Shown: positions 2,226 through 62,238, counted from the stretch's first letter. The stretch: DNA of 62,238 bases from an uncultured Rikenella sp. (GCA_964411345.1 CAYPKP010000006.1:25942-88179), one strand, 5' to 3'. Program-made: numbers and translations. Notes: generated by a model not told the origin, from the letters alone.

Positions 2226-3287
2226 CTATTTCTGGAAATCGAGTTTGCCCTGCATAGCCTTGCTGAAAAAGATGCCACCGTCGGTCAGCTCATAATTCCA
2301 CGACTTCAGCATCTGCGGCCACCATTCGGGATCGTATATCCAGCACATCCAGCTTATGCCGCGCTCTTCGAGGAATCGGATGATGCGATTGCCATAATCC
2401 TGGTAATCAGGCGATGCCATATCCGTATGCAGCCCGAACTCCGTGGCTACCACAGGCACAAAAGCGGCAGCAAATGCGAAGTTCTCCTCCCACCTGGGCT
2501 CCCACGGCTGACCTCGTTTAAAGGCATAAGGGTGTGTCACATAGCCTATGCCTTCGGCATTTACCGGGTCATCGCGGAGAGGGGAGAGGTCATAGGCCCA
2601 GTCGAGCCCAGCCACCAGCGGTATGGTCTCATTGTCATAAGCCCTTATAAGGCTTATCATCTGCTCATTAAGCTTTTTCCACTCCGTCCAGGGCAGTGAA
2701 CCCAGTTCACCTCTGTAGATGGTGGGCTCATTGAAGAGCTCGTAGAAGGCAACGGTATTATGCCCGGCGAAGTTGCGTGCAATGGTTCTCCAGAATTCGA
2801 AGGTCTCGGTTTTGGTTGTGTTGTACATCGGATCCTGGAAGAGCTCCATCCATAGATTCCCGATGGAATGCCAGTCGATTATCACATACATGCCCAGGTC
2901 GGTGCACCACTCCACCGCTTCCCGCAGAAGTGCAACGTATTCTTCGGGAGTACGTTCGCGCCAGGCAACGGGGTGTACAGGGATGCGGACGATCATGGCG
3001 CCGGTCTTCCTGACCTGCTCGAAATGAGCCTTGCTCCAGTGTCCCTGCCGTTCGATCTTGTCGGGGTCGGAGATCGACACTCCGCGGAACAGCACATTCT
3101 CTCCGTCCGGAGTGACGAATTTGTTGCCCTGCACCTTTATCAGGGGGAGGTTCTTTGCCTTCGGGTCAGGATCCGGACGTGACGTCGGGTCACCGAAATA
3201 CCATGGTTTGGCGTCCTGGGCGGCCAGAACCGTTGATGCAATGAATGTTATAAGCAGAAAAACAGGGAAAAGCAGTTTTGTTTTCAT
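2226..3287 (-). CDS. Glycoside hydrolase family 5 (cellulase family), exported
   Basis: VRIPVHP, IDWH, YELFNEP (acid/base), VATEFG (nucleophile); signal peptide VLAA|Q. Confidence 0.9.
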   Translation of the reverse strand: MKTKLLFPVFLLITFIASTVLAAQDAKPWYFGDPTSRPDPDPKAKNLPLIKVQGNKFVTPDGENVLFRGVSISDPDKIERQGHWSKAHFEQVRKTGAMIVRIPVHPVAWRERTPEEYVALLREAVEWCTDLGMYVIIDWHSIGNLWMELFQDPMYNTTKTETFEFWRTIARNFAGHNTVAFYELFNEPTIYRGELGSLPWTEWKKLNEQMISLIRAYDNETIPLVAGLDWAYDLSPLRDDPVNAEGIGYVTHPYAFKRGQPWEPRWEENFAFAAAFVPVVATEFGLHTDMASPDYQDYGNRIIRFLEERGISWMCWIYDPEWWPQMLKSWNYELTDGGIFFSKAMQGKLDFQK

Positions 3288-3437
3288 CTTGTTATCTGGT
3301 GTTGTTGATACATCAGTGAATTACAGGATATGAAAATAGCAAATCCGCTATTGCAATCAAAATGCCCGGCTAAAGGAACAAGCACCTTAAAACAAAAATC
3401 AACCGTCAGTGTTATCCTTATAACGCAATATAAAGTC

Positions 3438-4451
3438 ATGAAAAACATTAAGATCGCTTTTTTTGATGCCAAACCTTATGATATCGAATCATTCAACGAG
3501 GTTAATCTTGCTTACGGTTTTACAGTCAAATATTTCAAATTCCATCTGACCTCTGACAACGTTGTGCTTGCGCAGGGGTATGATGCGGTGGTCATCTTTG
3601 TGAATGACACCGTTGACTCCGGAATGATCATGAAGCTTAAGGAATACGGTGTGAAGCTCATAGCCCTCCGTTCGGCAGGATTCAACAACGTCGACCTTAA
3701 AGCGGCGCTGAACAATATCACTGTCGCACGGGTGCCTGCATATTCGCCCCACGCCATTGCGGAGCATACAGTGGCACTCATGCTGACGCTGAACCGTAAG
3801 GTTCACAGGGCATACTTCCGTACAAGGGATACCAACTTTGCCCTGAACGGGCTCCTGGGCTTTGATATGTATGGCAAGAGTGCAGGTGTGATAGGCACCG
3901 GAAGGATTGGAAGGGCGCTGGTAAAGATCCTGCGGGGGTTCGGTATGGAGGTGCTGCTCACCGACAACTACCCGGACGCCTCTTTTGCTGCGGAGACTGA
4001 AAGCAGTTATGTAAGCCTGGAGGAGCTTTACAGGAGGTCAGATATAATTTCGCTCAACTGCCCGCTGACGAAGGAAACTGAGTACATGATCAACACCTCG
4101 TCAATTGGCATGATGAAGAGAGGAGTGATGCTCATCAATACCGGTCGCGGCAAGCTGATCAGGACTGCCGACCTGATAGAGGGGCTAAAGAGCGGGCAGA
4201 TAGGGTCTGCCGGGCTTGATGTCTACGAGGAGGAGAGCCAGTTCTTCTTCGAGGATCTCTCCGACAGGGTGCTGGCTGATGATGTGCTGGCGCGGCTTCT
4301 GACATTCAACAATGTGATAATCACCTCGCACCAGGGCTTCTTCACCCGCGAGGCCATCCGCAACATCGCAGAGACCACACTTAAGAACATTGATGATTTC
4401 TTCGCAGGTCGCAAGCTGTTAAACGAGGTCTGCTACAACTGCCCTAACTGA
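3438..4451 (+). CDS. ldhA: D-lactate / D-2-hydroxyacid dehydrogenase (NAD-dependent)
   Basis: RSAGFNNVD, RVPAYSP, GTGRIG, NTGRG, DVYEEE, TSHQG. Start moved from 3330 to the ATG at 3438 (MKNIKIAFFD). Confidence 0.9.
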   Translation: MKNIKIAFFDAKPYDIESFNEVNLAYGFTVKYFKFHLTSDNVVLAQGYDAVVIFVNDTVDSGMIMKLKEYGVKLIALRSAGFNNVDLKAALNNITVARVPAYSPHAIAEHTVALMLTLNRKVHRAYFRTRDTNFALNGLLGFDMYGKSAGVIGTGRIGRALVKILRGFGMEVLLTDNYPDASFAAETESSYVSLEELYRRSDIISLNCPLTKETEYMINTSSIGMMKRGVMLINTGRGKLIRTADLIEGLKSGQIGSAGLDVYEEESQFFFEDLSDRVLADDVLARLLTFNNVIITSHQGFFTREAIRNIAETTLKNIDDFFAGRKLLNEVCYNCPN

Positions 4452-44445: not shown

Positions 44446-44464
44446 TTTGTCAGATCAGGACAAA
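44446..44464. promoter_or_regulatory. Candidate GntR operator directly upstream of gntR
   Basis: TTTGTC-AGATCAG-GACAAA inverted repeat. Confidence 0.45.
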
Positions 44465-44488: not shown

Positions 44489-45343
44489 TTATTTATAGTG
44501 TTCCCTGTAAAACTCCAGGGCTTTTTTCACCGATCCCTGCTCCATCAGAAGTATGCGGGCTGCCTCCCTCTGGATGTCAAGCTCCTCAACTATCATCCTG
44601 GTGCCGCGCTCTATCAGCTTCTTGTTGGTGAGCTGCATGTTGACCATCTTGTTGCCTTTTACCCTGCCAAGCTTGATCATGAGCGTTGTGGTTATCATGT
44701 TCAGCACCATCTTCTGTGCGGTACCGGCCTTAAGCCGTGTGCTTCCCGTTAAAAACTCGGGTCCGACAACCACCACGACGGGGTGTTCAGCTACCTTCAC
44801 TATCGGGCTGTCAGGGTTGCATGTGATGCACCCGGTCAGGATGCCGTTCTCCCTTGCTCTCTGTACCCCTCCGATGACATATGGCGTTGTGCCGGAGGCA
44901 GCAATTCCGATAACCGAATCCTTGGTGTTGATGTTGAAAATCTCCAGCTCGCTCCACGCCTTGGCGGGGTCATCCTCGGCAGACTCCACAGCCTTGCGAA
45001 GCGCGGTCTCTCCTCCGGCAATCAGCCCGATAACCACGGTATCGGGCACACCAAAGGATGGAGGCACCTCTGAGGCGTCCAGCACCCCCAGCCTGCCGCT
45101 GGTGCCTGCCCCGAGATAGAAGAGCCTGCCGCCCTTCTGCATCCTTCCGTAAATCTGGTTGATGAGAGTCTCAATCTGAGGTATCGCCTCCCTGACGGCA
45201 AGGTGTACCTTTGCATCTTCCTGATTTATGTTGGTCAGCAACTCATTGACTGTCATCTTGTCAATATCCTCAAAGTTGGAGGGCGACTCGGTAATGCTTA
45301 GCTGTTGTCTTGTGAGACCTGCTTTACTGGTGCTTCGGTACAT
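44489..45343 (-). CDS. murQ: N-acetylmuramic acid 6-phosphate etherase
   Basis: GRLFYLGAGTSGRLGVLDASEVPPSFG, GPEFLTGSTRLKAGTAQKMVLNM, GNKMV. Confidence 0.95.
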   Translation of the reverse strand: MYRSTSKAGLTRQQLSITESPSNFEDIDKMTVNELLTNINQEDAKVHLAVREAIPQIETLINQIYGRMQKGGRLFYLGAGTSGRLGVLDASEVPPSFGVPDTVVIGLIAGGETALRKAVESAEDDPAKAWSELEIFNINTKDSVIGIAASGTTPYVIGGVQRARENGILTGCITCNPDSPIVKVAEHPVVVVVGPEFLTGSTRLKAGTAQKMVLNMITTTLMIKLGRVKGNKMVNMQLTNKKLIERGTRMIVEELDIQREAARILLMEQGSVKKALEFYREHYK

Positions 45344-46184
45344 CTGGATTCTGAATATGATATTTAACGAGGTTGTCCATCGGAGAGAGGGAGAAAATTC
45401 CCGGCTGCAACCTGTGCTCTATAAGCAGCTTCTCGAGAAATGGCCTGAAATGATATGCAATACTGCCTGTAAAATGGACAGGGAAATCCCTGGCCTCCGG
45501 ATAGGAGAGCACATTCCTTACGATGAACTCATCAAAACTGGATGTTATTATCGCCTGCAGTTCCGGTACATGCAGGTTGTCAGCGATGAAGCGCGAAAAC
45601 TGACCAAGAAATTTATTTGGGAAAGGCATGTTGTACACTCTCTCAAGTATCTGTGCGGGAGTATAGTTGTAAGTCCTGAAGAAGGTATCTATCACCTCAT
45701 CCGGGAACTGCTTCTTCAGTATGCCTGATACCAGTTTCCTGCCTATGACGGCACCGCCTCCCTCGTCGCCAAGGATATAACCAAGCGGAGAGACATTCTC
45801 GACAATATTTCTTCCGTCATAGTAGCATGAGTTGGACCCTGTGCCAATTATGCATGCAATACCTGGCTTGTCCATGCAGAGCGACCTCGCTGCACCCAGC
45901 AGGTCACTGCCGATAAACAGGTCTTCAATGCCAAAAAAGGAGGTCAGAGCTCCCTTTACCACGTCAACCTTTGAGGCGTTGCTGACCCCGGTACAGTAAA
46001 AAAAGAGTTTGCTGACACCCGCATTTGCAAGCTCAGGTATCTCCCTGCCCAGCAAACCGGTAATCTCCTCACGGTTAACAAAAAAAGGATTTATACCGGA
46101 AGATGTGTATGACTTCCCGTTACCGGTCTCTGCAACCTCTCTCCATTCAGTCTTGGTGGAGCCACTGTCAGCGATCAGTATCAT
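45324..46184 (-). CDS. BadF/BadG/BcrA/BcrD-type amino-sugar kinase (MurK/GlcNAc kinase-like)
   Basis: ILIADSGSTKTEW, SDLLGAARS, ACIIGTGSNSC, LGYILGDEGGG; directly upstream of murQ. Confidence 0.85.
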   Translation of the reverse strand: MILIADSGSTKTEWREVAETGNGKSYTSSGINPFFVNREEITGLLGREIPELANAGVSKLFFYCTGVSNASKVDVVKGALTSFFGIEDLFIGSDLLGAARSLCMDKPGIACIIGTGSNSCYYDGRNIVENVSPLGYILGDEGGGAVIGRKLVSGILKKQFPDEVIDTFFRTYNYTPAQILERVYNMPFPNKFLGQFSRFIADNLHVPELQAIITSSFDEFIVRNVLSYPEARDFPVHFTGSIAYHFRPFLEKLLIEHRLQPGIFSLSPMDNLVKYHIQNPDVPKHQ

Positions 46185-46308: not shown

Positions 46309-46326
46309 TTTGTCAGATGTATGACA
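46309..46326. promoter_or_regulatory. Candidate GntR operator in the divergent promoter region
   Basis: TGTCAGAT|GTATGACA pseudo-palindrome; shares TTTGTCAGAT with the 44446 site. Confidence 0.5.
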
Positions 46327-57471: not shown

Positions 57472-60400
57472 ATGGTAACGGAAGAGAAGTTCAGAAAGCT
57501 TGCGGAAGAGATCACCGGTGATCTCTATACTGACATTACACAGCGTATACTCTATGCCACGGATGCCTCGGCATACAGGGAGGTGCCCCTGGCAGTGACC
57601 AGGCCTGCCGGCCGTGATGATATAAAAAAGATAATTGCCTTTGCCCGTCGCGAGGGCACATCGGTCATCCCCCGCGGGGCCGGCACCTCGCTGGCAGGCC
57701 AGGTGGTGGGGCCGGGGATCGTCATGGACATCTCAAAACATCTGAACCGTATCCTTGAGTTCAACCCGGGGGAGCGCTGGGTTACGGTGGAACCCGGCGT
57801 GGTACTGGCGGAGCTGAACCGGTATGTGGCTCCTCACCGCCTGCAGTTCGGTCCCGAGACATCCACCGCAAACCGCTGCTGCATGGGAGGCATGCTGGGC
57901 AACAACTCATGCGGTGCTCACTCCATCATCCATGGCAGCGTGAGAGACCACATCCTCGAGGTTGATGCCGTTCTGTCCGACGGGTCAGAGGTCCATTTTG
58001 GCGCTCTCACCAGGGAGGAGTTCAACGCAAAGTGCGACGGTGACCCCGGACTGCTGGAGACGCAGATTTACAGAAATCTCCGAGACATCCTCTCCGATCA
58101 GCGAAATGCGGAGGAGATAGAGAGGGAGTTCCCTCATCCGGAGCTGCGGCGGCGAAACAACGGTTATGCCCTCGACATAATGCTGAGGACGGATCCATTT
58201 ACCGGTAACGGTGAGAAGATAAACGTTTGCAGGCTCCTGGCAGGTTCGGAAGGTACCCTGGCCTTCACCACGGTCATGAAGCTGAACCTGGTACCAGTCA
58301 CTGAACAGAAGACCGGGTTGCTCTGCGCCCACTTCAACAGCCTGCAGGATGCCGTCAGGGCTAACATTATCGTGCTTAAGCACTCGCCTGCCGCCGTGGA
58401 GCTGATAGATGACTATATCGTCAACTGCACCGGCGACAACATTGAGCAGAGCAAAAACCGCTTCTTCATCAAGGGCGATCCGAAGGCAATACTGCTGATT
58501 GAGATCATCCGGCCGACTTTTCAGGAGATAGAGAAGACAGCTTCGGCTATGGAGAGGGATATGATTGCTGCAGGCTACGGCTACCATTTTCCGCTTTATA
58601 CCGGTGCCGAAGAGATGGCGAGGGTGTGGGAGCTGCGCAGGGCCGGCCTGGGGGTGCTGCTCAATATCCCCGGCAGGAAGAAGAGCGTTCAGGTCATAGA
58701 GGATACCGCCGTGCTGCCGGAGCTCTTTCCCGGTTACCTGGAGGATGTCACTACCGTACTTGAGAAATACGGGCTGAGCTGCGCATACTACGCACATATT
58801 GCCACCGGAGAGCTGCATCTCAGTCCCCTGCTTGACCTGAAAGACCCTGCCGACATAGAGATATTTCACGGTCTGGCCAGGGATATAGCCCTTCTTGTAA
58901 AGAAGTACCGCGGTTCGCTCAGCGGCGAGCACGGCGACGGCAGGCTGAGGGGTGAGTTTATCCCCCTGATGCTCGGGGAGCATAACTACGAGCTGCTGAA
59001 GGCGATAAAGAAAACGTGGGATCCGGCTTCTGTATTCAATCCGGGAAAAATTACCGACACTCCCCCCATAACCGGCAACCTGAGGTATCCGGCAGGAGTC
59101 AGGATGAAGGTGCCGGGGATAGTCTTTGACTTTCCGGAGGAGGAGGGGCTGCTCTATGCCACGGAGAAGTGCAGCGGCTCGGCCGACTGCCGCAAGAGCG
59201 CCCTTGTGGGAGGCGCCATGTGCCCGACTTTCATGGCAACGGGCGACGAGGATAAGTCGACACGCGCCAGGGCAAATATCCTGAGGGAGTTCCTGACGAG
59301 ATCGGAAAAAACGAACCGGTTTGACCATGAGGAGATATACCGGGTGATGGATCTCTGCCTCTCATGCAAGGCATGCAAGGCCGAGTGTCCTTCAAACGTC
59401 GATGTGGCCAAGCTCAAGGCCGAGTTCCTGCAGCATTATTATGATATCCACCACGTGCCTTTCCGTGCATGGCTCATAGCATGGCTGCCACGGCTGTACA
59501 TCCCCGGCATGATGGTTCGTCCGCTTACCAACCTGGTGACCTCAACGGCTCTCTTCAAGCGCATCATTGGCTTCTCGGTGAAACGACCCATCCCTGCCCT
59601 CTCGCCCGTCACGTTAAGAGCATGGCAGAGACGTCACATCAGAAATAGCGTCGGATTTAATGGCAGTGCGGATGGAGCCGGGAGAAAATCGGTCACTGCT
59701 GCTACCGTCGGTTCCGGCACTGAAGATCACCTGCTGGGCAGCAGAGACCATCTCATATCGAAAGGCACCGTCTGCCTCTTTGCCGATGAGTTCACCAACT
59801 ACAACGAGAGCGACATTGGCATCAAGGCGGTGATGCTGCTTGAGAGACTGGGATACAATGTCATCATCCCGCGCCACAGGGAGAGCGGACGCACCTTCCT
59901 CTCCAAGGGACTGATACGGTCGGCACGCAGGCTGGCCCTGAAAAATATACTGATGCTGAAGGATGTTGTCTCCGAAGAACGGCCGCTGATAGGCATCGAG
60001 CCGTCAGCGCTCCTGACCTTCCGGGACGAGTATCCTGACATGGCAGGAGAGTCACTGGCTGAAGATGCGCGTAACATTGCGCGCAACGCACTCCTCTTTG
60101 AGGAATTCATCTCCCGCGAGGCGGACAGGGGTAATATCACGCCGGACCAGTTTACGGACCGGTCCCTGAAGATACTGCTGCACGGCCACTGCCAGCAGAA
60201 GGCGGTGGCATCGACTGCTCCCACCGTCACGATGCTGTCGCTGCCCCGCAACTACAGCGTTGAGGAGATAAATGACGGCTGCTGCGGCATGGCAGGAGCC
60301 TTCGGCTACGAAAAGGAGCACTATGACCTGAGCATGAAGATAGGCGAAATGGTGCTCTTTCCGGCTGTGCGGGCTGCAGAGGCTGAGACTGTAATAGCTG

Positions 60401-60501
60401 CACCGGGCACATCCTGCCGGCACCACATCGCTGACGGCACGGGACGCCGGGCGCTGCATCCGGTTGAGATAATGTATGACGCTCTTGAGAAACAGGATTG
60501 A
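57472..60501 (+). CDS. FAD-linked oxidase + [4Fe-4S] + CCG protein (YdiJ/GlcD-like D-2-hydroxyacid dehydrogenase)
   Basis: YATDASAY, PRGAGTSLAGQ, GGMLGNNSCG, GSEGTL, SGEHGDG, CSGSADC, CLSCKACKAECP, HGHCQQKA, CCGMAGAFG. Confidence 0.9.
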   Translation: MVTEEKFRKLAEEITGDLYTDITQRILYATDASAYREVPLAVTRPAGRDDIKKIIAFARREGTSVIPRGAGTSLAGQVVGPGIVMDISKHLNRILEFNPGERWVTVEPGVVLAELNRYVAPHRLQFGPETSTANRCCMGGMLGNNSCGAHSIIHGSVRDHILEVDAVLSDGSEVHFGALTREEFNAKCDGDPGLLETQIYRNLRDILSDQRNAEEIEREFPHPELRRRNNGYALDIMLRTDPFTGNGEKINVCRLLAGSEGTLAFTTVMKLNLVPVTEQKTGLLCAHFNSLQDAVRANIIVLKHSPAAVELIDDYIVNCTGDNIEQSKNRFFIKGDPKAILLIEIIRPTFQEIEKTASAMERDMIAAGYGYHFPLYTGAEEMARVWELRRAGLGVLLNIPGRKKSVQVIEDTAVLPELFPGYLEDVTTVLEKYGLSCAYYAHIATGELHLSPLLDLKDPADIEIFHGLARDIALLVKKYRGSLSGEHGDGRLRGEFIPLMLGEHNYELLKAIKKTWDPASVFNPGKITDTPPITGNLRYPAGVRMKVPGIVFDFPEEEGLLYATEKCSGSADCRKSALVGGAMCPTFMATGDEDKSTRARANILREFLTRSEKTNRFDHEEIYRVMDLCLSCKACKAECPSNVDVAKLKAEFLQHYYDIHHVPFRAWLIAWLPRLYIPGMMVRPLTNLVTSTALFKRIIGFSVKRPIPALSPVTLRAWQRRHIRNSVGFNGSADGAGRKSVTAATVGSGTEDHLLGSRDHLISKGTVCLFADEFTNYNESDIGIKAVMLLERLGYNVIIPRHRESGRTFLSKGLIRSARRLALKNILMLKDVVSEERPLIGIEPSALLTFRDEYPDMAGESLAEDARNIARNALLFEEFISREADRGNITPDQFTDRSLKILLHGHCQQKAVASTAPTVTMLSLPRNYSVEEINDGCCGMAGAFGYEKEHYDLSMKIGEMVLFPAVRAAEAETVIAAPGTSCRHHIADGTGRRALHPVEIMYDALEKQD

Positions 60502-60659
60502 CATGATTAATTGAGGATTGCAGCTTCCCGGAAAAGAGTCTGCATAAACAAACAGAGGGGATCGATGAAACCTGCCTGAGAGTAACCTCACAGGATCGAA
60601 TGATTATAATTTTTCATTCAGGTTGCATTCGAACAATGAAACAAAAACAAACCAATAGT

Positions 60660-62238
60660 ATGAAAACTGCAGTTTTGAGCAAGGTGGAACAGTCGTTCTT
60701 CGAACGGTCGGGCAGGAGAGAGCCAACGACAAAACTGCCATACGTGGTGGTCCCCAATTTTCCGGGTCTTGGCCTGCTGACGGCGCTGAGATTCCTGGAA
60801 TGGGTCGCCGCCAACCCTGACGGGGTGATAAGCCTCCCCACCGGCAAGACGCCGGAGTACTTCATCAAGTGGACGCAGTACCTGCTGAAGAACTGGAGTA
60901 AGGCTGAAGCCGTAAAGATACGTGAGGAGAACGGACTTTTCCTGGATGAGAAGCCTTCACTGCGAGGCCTTCACTTCGTGCAGATAGATGAGTTTTATCC
61001 CATTGACCCGCGCCAGCACAACAGCTTCTTTGATTATGTGAGCAAATATTACATAAAGGGCTTTGAGCTCGATCCTTCCAAAGCACTGCTGATCAACAGC
61101 GAAGAGATACCACTGGCAGAGGGCAGGCACTATTCGGAGGTTTTTCCTGACAGCCTTATAGACCTGAGCCTGAGGAACAGGGAGCCGCTCAGCCCGCTGG
61201 AGAGGCTGCAGCAGGCATCGATCTTCAGCATTGACAACTGGTGCACCAGATACGAGAAGAAGATCCGCGATCTTGGAGGGATAGGCTTCTTCCTGGGAGG
61301 AATAGGGCCTGACGGACATATAGCGTTCAACACACGGGGCAGTGACCATAACTCTGCCACCAGGCTCACGGCAACCAACTTCGAAACGCAGGCGGCATCG
61401 GCCGGCGACCTGGGAGGGATAGAGGTCTCCCGTACCAGGCTGGTGATCACAATAGGACTGGGGACGATTACCTGTGATCCGGATGCGGTATCGATTATAT
61501 TCGCCGCCGGCGATGCCAAGGCACATGTAGTCAGGGATGCTCTTGAGAACGGACCTGACAACCTTTATCCCGCCACCGTGCTCCAGGGACAGAAGAATGC
61601 ACGCTTTTACATCACTGACGGTGCTTCCGTTCAGCTTCACGATACCGTTGAGAGATACTACAGGGAGGGCGAGTGGACCTTCGAAAAGACCGAGAGAGCC
61701 ATCCATGACCTCTGCCGGAAGATCGACAAATATGCGCATAAGCTGGTTCTGGAAGATCTGCAGAACGATGAATACTGCTCGCTGATACCTGACCTTAGCC
61801 TGGACAGGGTCAGTGATGTGATAGAATCGACCAAAAGCAAGATTGAGTCGGGACTGAAGCGGGAGCGCAATGCCACGTTCTTCCATACCGGGCCGCACCA
61901 TGACGACATCATGCTCGGCATCTTTCCTGCAATCATACCACAACTGAGAGAGATAACCAACAAATTTCATTTTTCGGTTCTGACATCAGGATTCACCGCC
62001 GTTACCAACAGCATGCTGCTCGGACTGCTTGAGGAGACCCGGAGGCTGATAGGAATTGGCAAGGTGCAGATGCTGGAATACCCTGATTTCTTTGACCAGG
62101 GCTACAGGTTCAAGTGGGACAAGGATGTCAGCCACTATCTCGACAAGGTGGCTGACAAGGATGAGGCCGGCAAGCTGAGGGGAGTATGCCACCGGATTGT
62201 GAGGGCGATGGTAGATATTTACCGGCTGAAGTCGAAGG
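60660..62238 (+). CDS. nagB: Long glucosamine-6-phosphate deaminase (NagB) fused to a PIG-L/LmbE-like domain; truncated by window end and absent from the ORF track
   Basis: Hand translation: SLPTGKTP, VQIDEFYP, FLGGIGPDGHIAFN, ITIGLGTI, then HTGPHHDDIMLG (61893-61907) and SVLTSGFTAV; no stop before 62238. Confidence 0.85.
   Translation, partial: MKTAVLSKVEQSFFERSGRREPTTKLPYVVVPNFPGLGLLTALRFLEWVAANPDGVISLPTGKTPEYFIKWTQYLLKNWSKAEAVKIREENGLFLDEKPSLRGLHFVQIDEFYPIDPRQHNSFFDYVSKYYIKGFELDPSKALLINSEEIPLAEGRHYSEVFPDSLIDLSLRNREPLSPLERLQQASIFSIDNWCTRYEKKIRDLGGIGFFLGGIGPDGHIAFNTRGSDHNSATRLTATNFETQAASAGDLGGIEVSRTRLVITIGLGTITCDPDAVSIIFAAGDAKAHVVRDALENGPDNLYPATVLQGQKNARFYITDGASVQLHDTVERYYREGEWTFEKTERAIHDLCRKIDKYAHKLVLEDLQNDEYCSLIPDLSLDRVSDVIESTKSKIESGLKRERNATFFHTGPHHDDIMLGIFPAIIPQLREITNKFHFSVLTSGFTAVTNSMLLGLLEETRRLIGIGKVQMLEYPDFFDQGYRFKWDKDVSHYLDKVADKDEAGKLRGVCHRIVRAMVDIYRLKSK

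Follow-up and report, generated by a model that had tools for sequence, protein, structure and literature searches.

A long NagB-type fusion protein with a predicted LmbE/PIG-L domain at the end of a peptidoglycan-salvage locus in an uncultured Rikenella species

Glucosamine-6-phosphate deaminases of the NagB type occur in a "long version", known from several bacteria and protists, whose C-terminal extension of about 500 amino acids (aa) was described without an assigned fold or function (Andersson et al. 2006, BMC Evol Biol 6:27, PMC1484493). A study from 2026 names "nagB-PIGL" as one of the genes transferred to ciliates, and an RNA interference paper on the Gln6Pi protein of Entamoeba histolytica follows a 37-kDa band and does not address the long form. 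Here, we describe a gene of this type from an uncultured Rikenella sp., located at the end of a 62,238-nucleotide stretch of contig C6 (GCA_964411345.1, CAYPKP010000006.1:25942-88179), hereafter the window. The gene encodes a NagB-like domain followed by a domain with a predicted LmbE/PIG-L fold, and is the last visible gene of a peptidoglycan-salvage locus. We propose, with a probability of about 50%, that its product would be a bifunctional enzyme, deacetylating N-acetylglucosamine 6-phosphate (GlcNAc-6P) and deaminating the resulting glucosamine 6-phosphate (GlcN-6P), which is dedicated to the branch fed by MurQ and works beside the canonical deacetylase NagA rather than replacing it.

The protein agrees with the long NagB of Andersson and colleagues in having a NagB-type N-domain and a long conserved C-terminal extension; its length of ~775 aa fits, and its database relatives are annotated as glucosamine-6-phosphate deaminase/isomerase. 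With this N-domain and a conserved extension of ~400–500 aa it belongs to the long NagB group, the difference being that the extension is here assigned, from structural models, an LmbE/PIG-L fold with a helical insert. The same domain order is found in NF002557/PRK02122, a family named "glucosamine-6-phosphate deaminase-like protein" (~653 aa), of which we take BT_0258 of Bacteroides thetaiotaomicron to be an example. A CRISPR interference study of that species regards BT_0258 as an isozyme of GlcN-6P deaminase; it is induced on mucin or N-acetylglucosamine (GlcNAc), and its knock-down is neutral. This short form and the long form align collinearly by BLASTP over residues 194–678 (25% identity, E 1e-22) and have PHxDD, TSG, R..E and distal T-H motifs in common. 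They differ in that the long form carries an insert of ~100 aa in its PIG-L domain, two inserts in its NagB domain and a Glu in place of the first His of the HxxH motif, and in their scores with the nagB model TIGR00502 (75–90 bits for the long form, 124–271 bits for the short form). The long form falls below the cut-offs of NF002557, TIGR00502 and the Pfam PIG-L model PF02585. We regard it as a divergent branch of the NagB-LmbE fusion family that bears inserts, and not as a new kind of system. This large family has been catalogued since 2006, and the window gene is an ordinary, truncated member of it.

For the C-terminal domain, the closest solved structures are those of the LmbE/PIG-L proteins BshB (6p2t), BC1534 (2ixd), the Pyrococcus diacetylchitobiose deacetylase Dac (8bgo, 3we7) and MshB (1q74). 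They are zinc deacetylases that share with it the fold (Z 14–20), the PH(x)DD metal/base motif and, as seen in the ortholog, the distal His, and all of them deacetylate GlcNAc-containing substrates; long NagB is only 12–18% identical to them and differs by its helical insert, altered HxxH motif and fusion to NagB. To our knowledge, no sugar-phosphate substrate has been documented for the LmbE/PIG-L family, and the substrate proposed here would be one. The reaction proposed for the PIG-L domain, and its position after MurQ, are those of NagA (amidohydrolase fold, TIGR00221) in the N-acetylmuramic acid (MurNAc) pathway of Escherichia coli; the fold of NagA is unrelated to PIG-L, and NagA itself is encoded in the Rikenella genome on another contig, C18.

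A scan for open reading frames (ORFs) showed that the plus-strand frame 60600–62237 stays open through to the last base of the window, which is the end of contig C6 in an assembly of 110 contigs (90.6% complete). The closest database proteins (93–95% identical) are 776 aa long, have the N-terminus MKTAVLSK and cover 96% of the longer ORF. With MKTAVLSK as the N-terminus of full-length relatives, translation of the gene likely starts at the ATG at 60660, the position given in the sequence-only reading, and the in-frame extension of 20 codons from the earlier ATG (60600..60659, + strand) is probably untranslated. Counted from this start, as are all motif positions below, the gene (60660..62237, + strand) comprises 526 of ~776 codons, the 5' two-thirds of a long nagB, and breaks off where the contig ends. 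The ORF is not a chance one, since 7485 database proteins match it, the best being proteins of 776 aa with 93–95% identity; full-length relatives measure 775–776 aa at 75–95% identity, one of them being the 776-aa ortholog P0003 from GCA_029210565.1. The 526 residues align without gaps to residues 1–526 of P0002, a full-length ortholog of 776 aa (94.7% identity), on which, rather than on the window's own fragment, the structural models were made. P0001 denotes the 546-aa translation that starts 20 codons upstream. Relatives were collected as 267 representatives at E ≤ 1e-30 from a library of 1.8 billion proteins, many of them 740–850 aa long and aligned end to end; conservation counts refer to an alignment of 37 diverse relatives, in which both domains align throughout. 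The sequence-only reading of the window had pointed out the motifs IDE, GHIAFN and PHHDD in this ORF, and they lie at aa 109–111, within aa 216–224 and at aa 412–416, respectively.

The NagB-like deaminase domain covers approximately aa 26–340 (60735..61679, + strand), as delimited on the ortholog model and by alignment to NagB entries of the Protein Data Bank (PDB), with family-specific insertions at about aa 70–100 and 152–190. Modelled residues 26–330 of P0002 superpose on B. subtilis NagB (2bkv) with a Z score of 31.1 and a root-mean-square deviation (rmsd) of 1.6 Å over 242 of 242 residues, and NagB entries (Z 26–31) rank above 6-phosphogluconolactonases (Z 20–23), which gives the N-terminal domain of the model a NagB fold. 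TIGR00502 matches residues 211–355 of P0001 (E 2e-25, 89.3 bits against a cut-off of 236.9), a partial match to model positions 114–256. The IDE motif (60984..60992, + strand) contains D110, which aligns with the Asp of the NagB "MDEY" motif and is Asp in 26/37 relatives. In the GPDGHIAFN motif (aa 216–224; 61305..61331, + strand), D218 and H220 align with the Asp-x-His pair of the solved NagBs, and alignment to the same structures shows that the equivalent of the phosphate-binding Lys is kept as K287, within AGDAKA. In the numbering of E. coli NagB, we take D110, D218, H220 and K287 to be Asp72, Asp141, His143 and Lys208, with T225 replacing Glu148 and Gln244 replacing Arg172. The lost Arg might be made up for by Lys63, a conserved residue of the PTGKTP loop.

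A helical linker of ~aa 341–400 (61680..61859, + strand), recognized from the secondary structure of the full-length ortholog model, leads into the C-terminal domain, of which the window holds the first third (61860..62237, + strand). Placed on the ortholog model, this part comprises strand 1, the PHHDD motif, strand 2 with TSG and the beginning of the insert. A profile search of the PDB with the C-domain put Pyrococcus Dac on top with an E-value of about 0.04–0.05, a weak match that made a fold search necessary. For residues ~404–758 of P0002, this search gave a Z score of 19.8 with BshB (6p2t; rmsd 2.5 Å, 207 of 232 residues) and returned 22 LmbE/PIG-L entries (BshB, BC1534, Dac, LnmX, TT1542, Orf2* and MshB) at Z 14–20, the next entry being unrelated at 7.5; the Foldseek probability of the LmbE/PIG-L match was 1.00. 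The modelled C-terminal domain therefore has the LmbE-type Rossmann-like fold. AlphaFold2 modelled the C-terminal 432 residues of P0002 with a mean predicted local distance difference test score (pLDDT) of 92.1 and a predicted template modelling score (pTM) of 0.91, and the full-length protein with 93.3 and 0.90, values that suggest a fixed, rigid packing of both domains. Since structure comparison is unambiguous for each domain, the fusion of NagB with an LmbE/PIG-L protein, as proposed from the sequence alone, is real. The match found by hhalign between the C-domain profile of the family and the stand-alone PIG-L protein of the same genome extended over no more than the PHxDD-TxG segment and was too weak to be used (E 0.14, probability 0.4%).

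The most conserved positions of the whole protein lie in the PIG-L domain: H409, P412, H413, H414, D415, D416, T442-S443-G444, K557, R561, E562, E564, H581, D601, D622, P623, H631 and Y659-R660-N661. In the PHHDD motif (61893..61907, + strand), which also aligns with Pyrococcus Dac, H413 (32/37 relatives) and D416 (36/37) are putative metal ligands and D415 (34/37) is the putative general base. Alignment of the ortholog with a Bacteroidales short form whose PIG-L and Glucosamine_iso domains both score above the Pfam thresholds equates PHHDD with PHPDD and DPEGSGPDTH with DPHG----TH. As H631 aligns with the T-H of DPHGTH in this Pfam-positive protein and is present in 33/37 relatives, the putative distal metal-ligand His, named in the sequence-only reading as the residue to look for, is present in the ortholog and in most of the family; in the window gene its position falls past the contig end. 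A helical insert of ~100 residues (450–555) separates the TSG strand from the R..E helix.

On the minus strand of the window lie murQ, encoding the MurNAc 6-phosphate (MurNAc-6P) etherase (44489..45343; TIGR00274 312 bits, above the cut-off; SIS domains), and, upstream of it, a BadF/BadG-type sugar kinase-like gene (45324..46184; weak PF01869 match), which we call MurK-like. MurQ yields GlcNAc-6P and D-lactate, and it therefore makes biochemical sense for the operon to end with a D-lactate dehydrogenase and an enzyme that processes GlcNAc-6P. A flavin adenine dinucleotide (FAD)/Fe-S 2-hydroxyacid dehydrogenase, a candidate D-lactate dehydrogenase (57472..60501, + strand; Pfam FAD_binding_4, FAD-oxidase_C and Fer4), adjoins long nagB directly upstream, an order that is repeated in another locus, L010. 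The 158-nt gap between the two genes contains no terminator-like hairpin; scanning for sigma-70 promoters has no meaning in Bacteroidota. The link to the MurQ pathway suggested by the sequence-only reading is supported by the position of the gene, which closes a peptidoglycan-salvage operon beside murQ.

In the proposed pathway, MurNAc would be taken up through the locus and phosphorylated by the MurK-like kinase, MurQ would split MurNAc-6P into D-lactate and GlcNAc-6P, and D-lactate would be handled by the neighbouring dehydrogenase. The PIG-L domain, with a metal site formed by His413, Asp416 and His631 and with Asp415 as the base, would deacetylate GlcNAc-6P, and the NagB domain, acting through Asp110, Asp218, His220 and Lys287, would convert GlcN-6P to fructose 6-phosphate and ammonium. 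In this genus, long NagB would do so beside a canonical NagA; elsewhere in the order, it would be the sole candidate deacetylase of most genomes sampled.

We surveyed 121 genomes of the order Bacteroidales, one per family and related to one another, for NagA (with a hidden Markov model and a protein query, both of which detected it in control genomes) and for the fusion (with a C-domain profile). A NagA homolog was present in 7/121 genomes, the long form (~775–830 aa) in 22/121 and the short PRK02122-like form (~630–700 aa) in 27/121, and 44 of the 49 fusion-bearing genomes lacked NagA. Canonical NagB (>390 bits) occurred in 23 genomes, 20 of which carry a fusion and three NagA. Canonical nagB is often the neighbour of a short form but usually not of a long form, and 6/22 long nagB loci have a ROK-family gene directly beside the fusion gene. 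In genome G067, where NagA was not found, a MurK-like kinase gene (47% identical to that of the window), murQ (70%) and long nagB stand in tandem. Such phyletic and tandem patterns would be expected of organisms in which the PIG-L domain of the fusion serves as GlcNAc-6P deacetylase. We propose, a little more tentatively than for the bifunctional enzyme of the window, that the PIG-L domain of long and short fusions may fill this role in most members of the order as a non-orthologous replacement of NagA.

The Rikenella genome itself contains a canonical nagA on contig C18 (G000:C18:42248-43336, corresponding to L002:1480-2622, - strand). Its product of 380 aa scores 293 bits with TIGR00221 (cut-off 225.65), and the gene lies directly upstream of one for a ROK-family sugar kinase. 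The sequence-only reading had noted correctly that nagA is absent from the window, NagA-family matches in the genome being on C18, C87, C70 and C4 and none on C6; its suggestion that the fusion supplies a missing GlcNAc-6P deacetylase fails on the C18 gene, and the reading as a whole is partly supported. Identity between this canonical NagA and the few NagA proteins found in the 120 other genomes of the order does not exceed 32%, and, being present in 14/15 other genomes of the genus but only 7/121 across the order, NagA looks like a genus-level trait. A profile search found no canonical NagB above the cut-off in the genome; the only other NagB-like candidate is a 257-aa protein with 111–122 bits, below every NagB cut-off.

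Several observations weigh against a bifunctional GlcNAc-6P enzyme. The Pfam PIG-L model PF02585 (threshold 28.2 bits) matches neither the window fragment at E ≤ 0.1 nor three full-length orthologs at E ≤ 1, more distant relatives giving sub-threshold matches of 17–22 bits; the Glucosamine_iso model PF01182 remains below threshold as well (17.7 bits, cut-off 27), and NF002557 gives 116.4 bits with the window fragment and 186.1 bits with P0002 against a cut-off of 384. At the level of residues, the Glu following FN in NagB is Thr225 in the window protein, with Glu at that column in 0/37 relatives, the Arg of the DTR motif is Gln244, the canonical Arg being gone family-wide, and the first His of HxxH (HPDH) is Glu624, as in most long forms, followed by a 4-residue insertion. 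Ortholog residues 520–776 match nothing in the 90.6%-complete assembly, and the 3' end of the gene, residues 527–776, is therefore taken as unassembled. In the searchable literature we found no enzymatic assay of the PIG-L domain of any family member. Across the order, NagA is rare with or without the fusion, and eight genomes (G007, G009, G021, G042, G068, G079, G093 and G111) carry murQ and have neither NagA nor a fusion, which implies another GlcNAc-6P deacetylase or a different fate of the MurQ product there. Within the genus, NagA occurs in 14/15 other genomes and long NagB in 12/15, the exceptions being 68–89% complete, so that the PIG-L domain is not needed to close the pathway in this organism. 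Their stable coexistence argues against simple redundancy and against the framing as a missing enzyme, and hints at distinct roles.

Such non-redundant roles would also follow if the PIG-L domain acted on another N-acetylated substrate and NagA handled GlcNAc-6P in this genus. Candidates are unphosphorylated GlcNAc or chitobiose, as in archaeal Dac-type enzymes with the kinase acting afterwards, MurNAc or MurNAc-6P, and another N-acetylhexosamine phosphate. Among the closest matches in sequence and structure are indeed diacetylchitobiose deacetylases, whose substrates are unphosphorylated, the altered HxxH and the large helical insert could be signs of another substrate, and the ROK kinases that adjoin six of the long nagB loci fit either order of steps. 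However, with a fusion partner that acts on GlcN-6P, the most economical substrate is GlcNAc-6P. MurQ, whose gene belongs to this locus and immediately precedes long nagB in G067, supplies GlcNAc-6P that is already phosphorylated, and most fusion-bearing genomes are without another candidate GlcNAc-6P deacetylase. We regard a different substrate as unlikely. Slightly less probable still is an arrangement in which one domain is catalytic and the other binds a ligand or regulates, that is, the GlcN-6P deaminase of the cell equipped with a PIG-L-like domain for sugar sensing, or a deacetylase whose NagB-like domain is degenerate. The family does tolerate the loss of either site: P0214, P0226, P0256 and P0190 lack the NagB Asp/His pair and keep the PIG-L residues, as does the short form of G029, and P0134 shows the reverse. 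The family-wide loss of the Glu148 and Arg172 equivalents and the name "deaminase-like" given by NCBI to the related family point the same way, and, with no canonical NagB above the cut-off in the genome, a deaminase role of long NagB would be needed. On the other hand, D110, D218, H220 and K287 as well as H413, D415, D416 and H631 are all retained in this lineage and in close relatives, and most family members keep both residue sets, as selection on two active sites predicts.

If the PIG-L domain does deacetylate GlcNAc-6P, a single polypeptide would carry out the final two steps in the catabolism of amino sugars and cell-wall sugars. This would explain how the many Bacteroidales without NagA use GlcNAc-6P and would correct pathway reconstructions in which nagA is obligatory. 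If the domain fills this role in most of the order, the LmbE/PIG-L superfamily would gain its first sugar-phosphate substrate, and tools that take nagA as the mark of amino-sugar catabolism would misjudge much of the Bacteroidales. The wider interest lies in this order-wide scarcity of NagA; for the window itself the result is modest, as the genome has its own nagA.

Beyond these domains and genes, the locus contains further functions on both strands. Upstream of long nagB, the plus strand encodes a 1006-aa Golvesin_C protein, a GT2 protein, a DUF4922 protein and a SpoIID-like protein, and, further, a GH9-CE4 fusion, an MFS permease and the FAD/Fe-S 2-hydroxyacid dehydrogenase. The divergent genes are the BadF/BadG-type kinase-like gene, murQ and genes for a GntR/FCD regulator, a GH18 protein and a beta-lactamase-fold protein. 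The locus of a 94%-identical ortholog has the same order and continues with NamZ, an NlpC/P60 peptidase, an MR/MLE-family epimerase, a 593-aa SIS protein and SusC/D. In G067, the tandem lies at approximately 6491–10660 of L039 (G067:C6:93300-108884), divergent from orthologs of the 1006-aa protein, GT2 and DUF4922. Three distant members of the long form lie on short contigs, among genes unrelated to those of the locus.

Other amino-sugar genes and family variants were seen along the way. A second nagA-like gene on contig C87 (C87:1-3628, L003) scores 184 bits, below the cut-off, and belongs to a separate amino-sugar module, lying between a fragment of an SSS-family transporter gene and a gene for a NagX-like transmembrane glucosamine N-acetyltransferase (367 bits). 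The gene of the 257-aa NagB-like protein is on contig C62 (L006:1312-2085), directly upstream of a heparinase-like gene. As an example of a short form beside canonical nagB, genome G086 carries the two at L016:1433-3439 and L016:3709-4521. The short form of G029 (L015:983-2959) reads GQLGNLGFNE in place of GxDGHIAFNE and has a PIG-L domain above the Pfam threshold; because the NagB-like Asp/His pair is lost, its deaminase-like half may be a pseudoenzyme. On the metagenome contig L045, an N-domain gene (354 aa, 44% identical; 1408–2472) and a C-domain gene (417 aa; 2514–3767) are 41 nt apart, which points to a form that is split by nature or else to a frameshift. A stand-alone C-domain gene of 440 aa with unrelated neighbours is found on L044.

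A genome-wide motif scan bears on the regulation of the locus. It found no copy of a candidate GntR operator near nagA, a weak result given that the operator itself is unverified, and co-regulation of nagA with the locus is possible but unsupported. The candidate operator, TGTCAGAT-N(3-4)-GACA, occurs at window positions 44448–44462, upstream of gntR, and 46311–46326, in the divergent intergenic gap between the murK-like gene and the gene of the 1006-aa protein. The 3.3-Mb genome contains four copies, the other two being inside long ORFs on contigs C2 and C10, and this distribution of the TGTCAGAT motif is consistent with a locus-specific candidate GntR operator.

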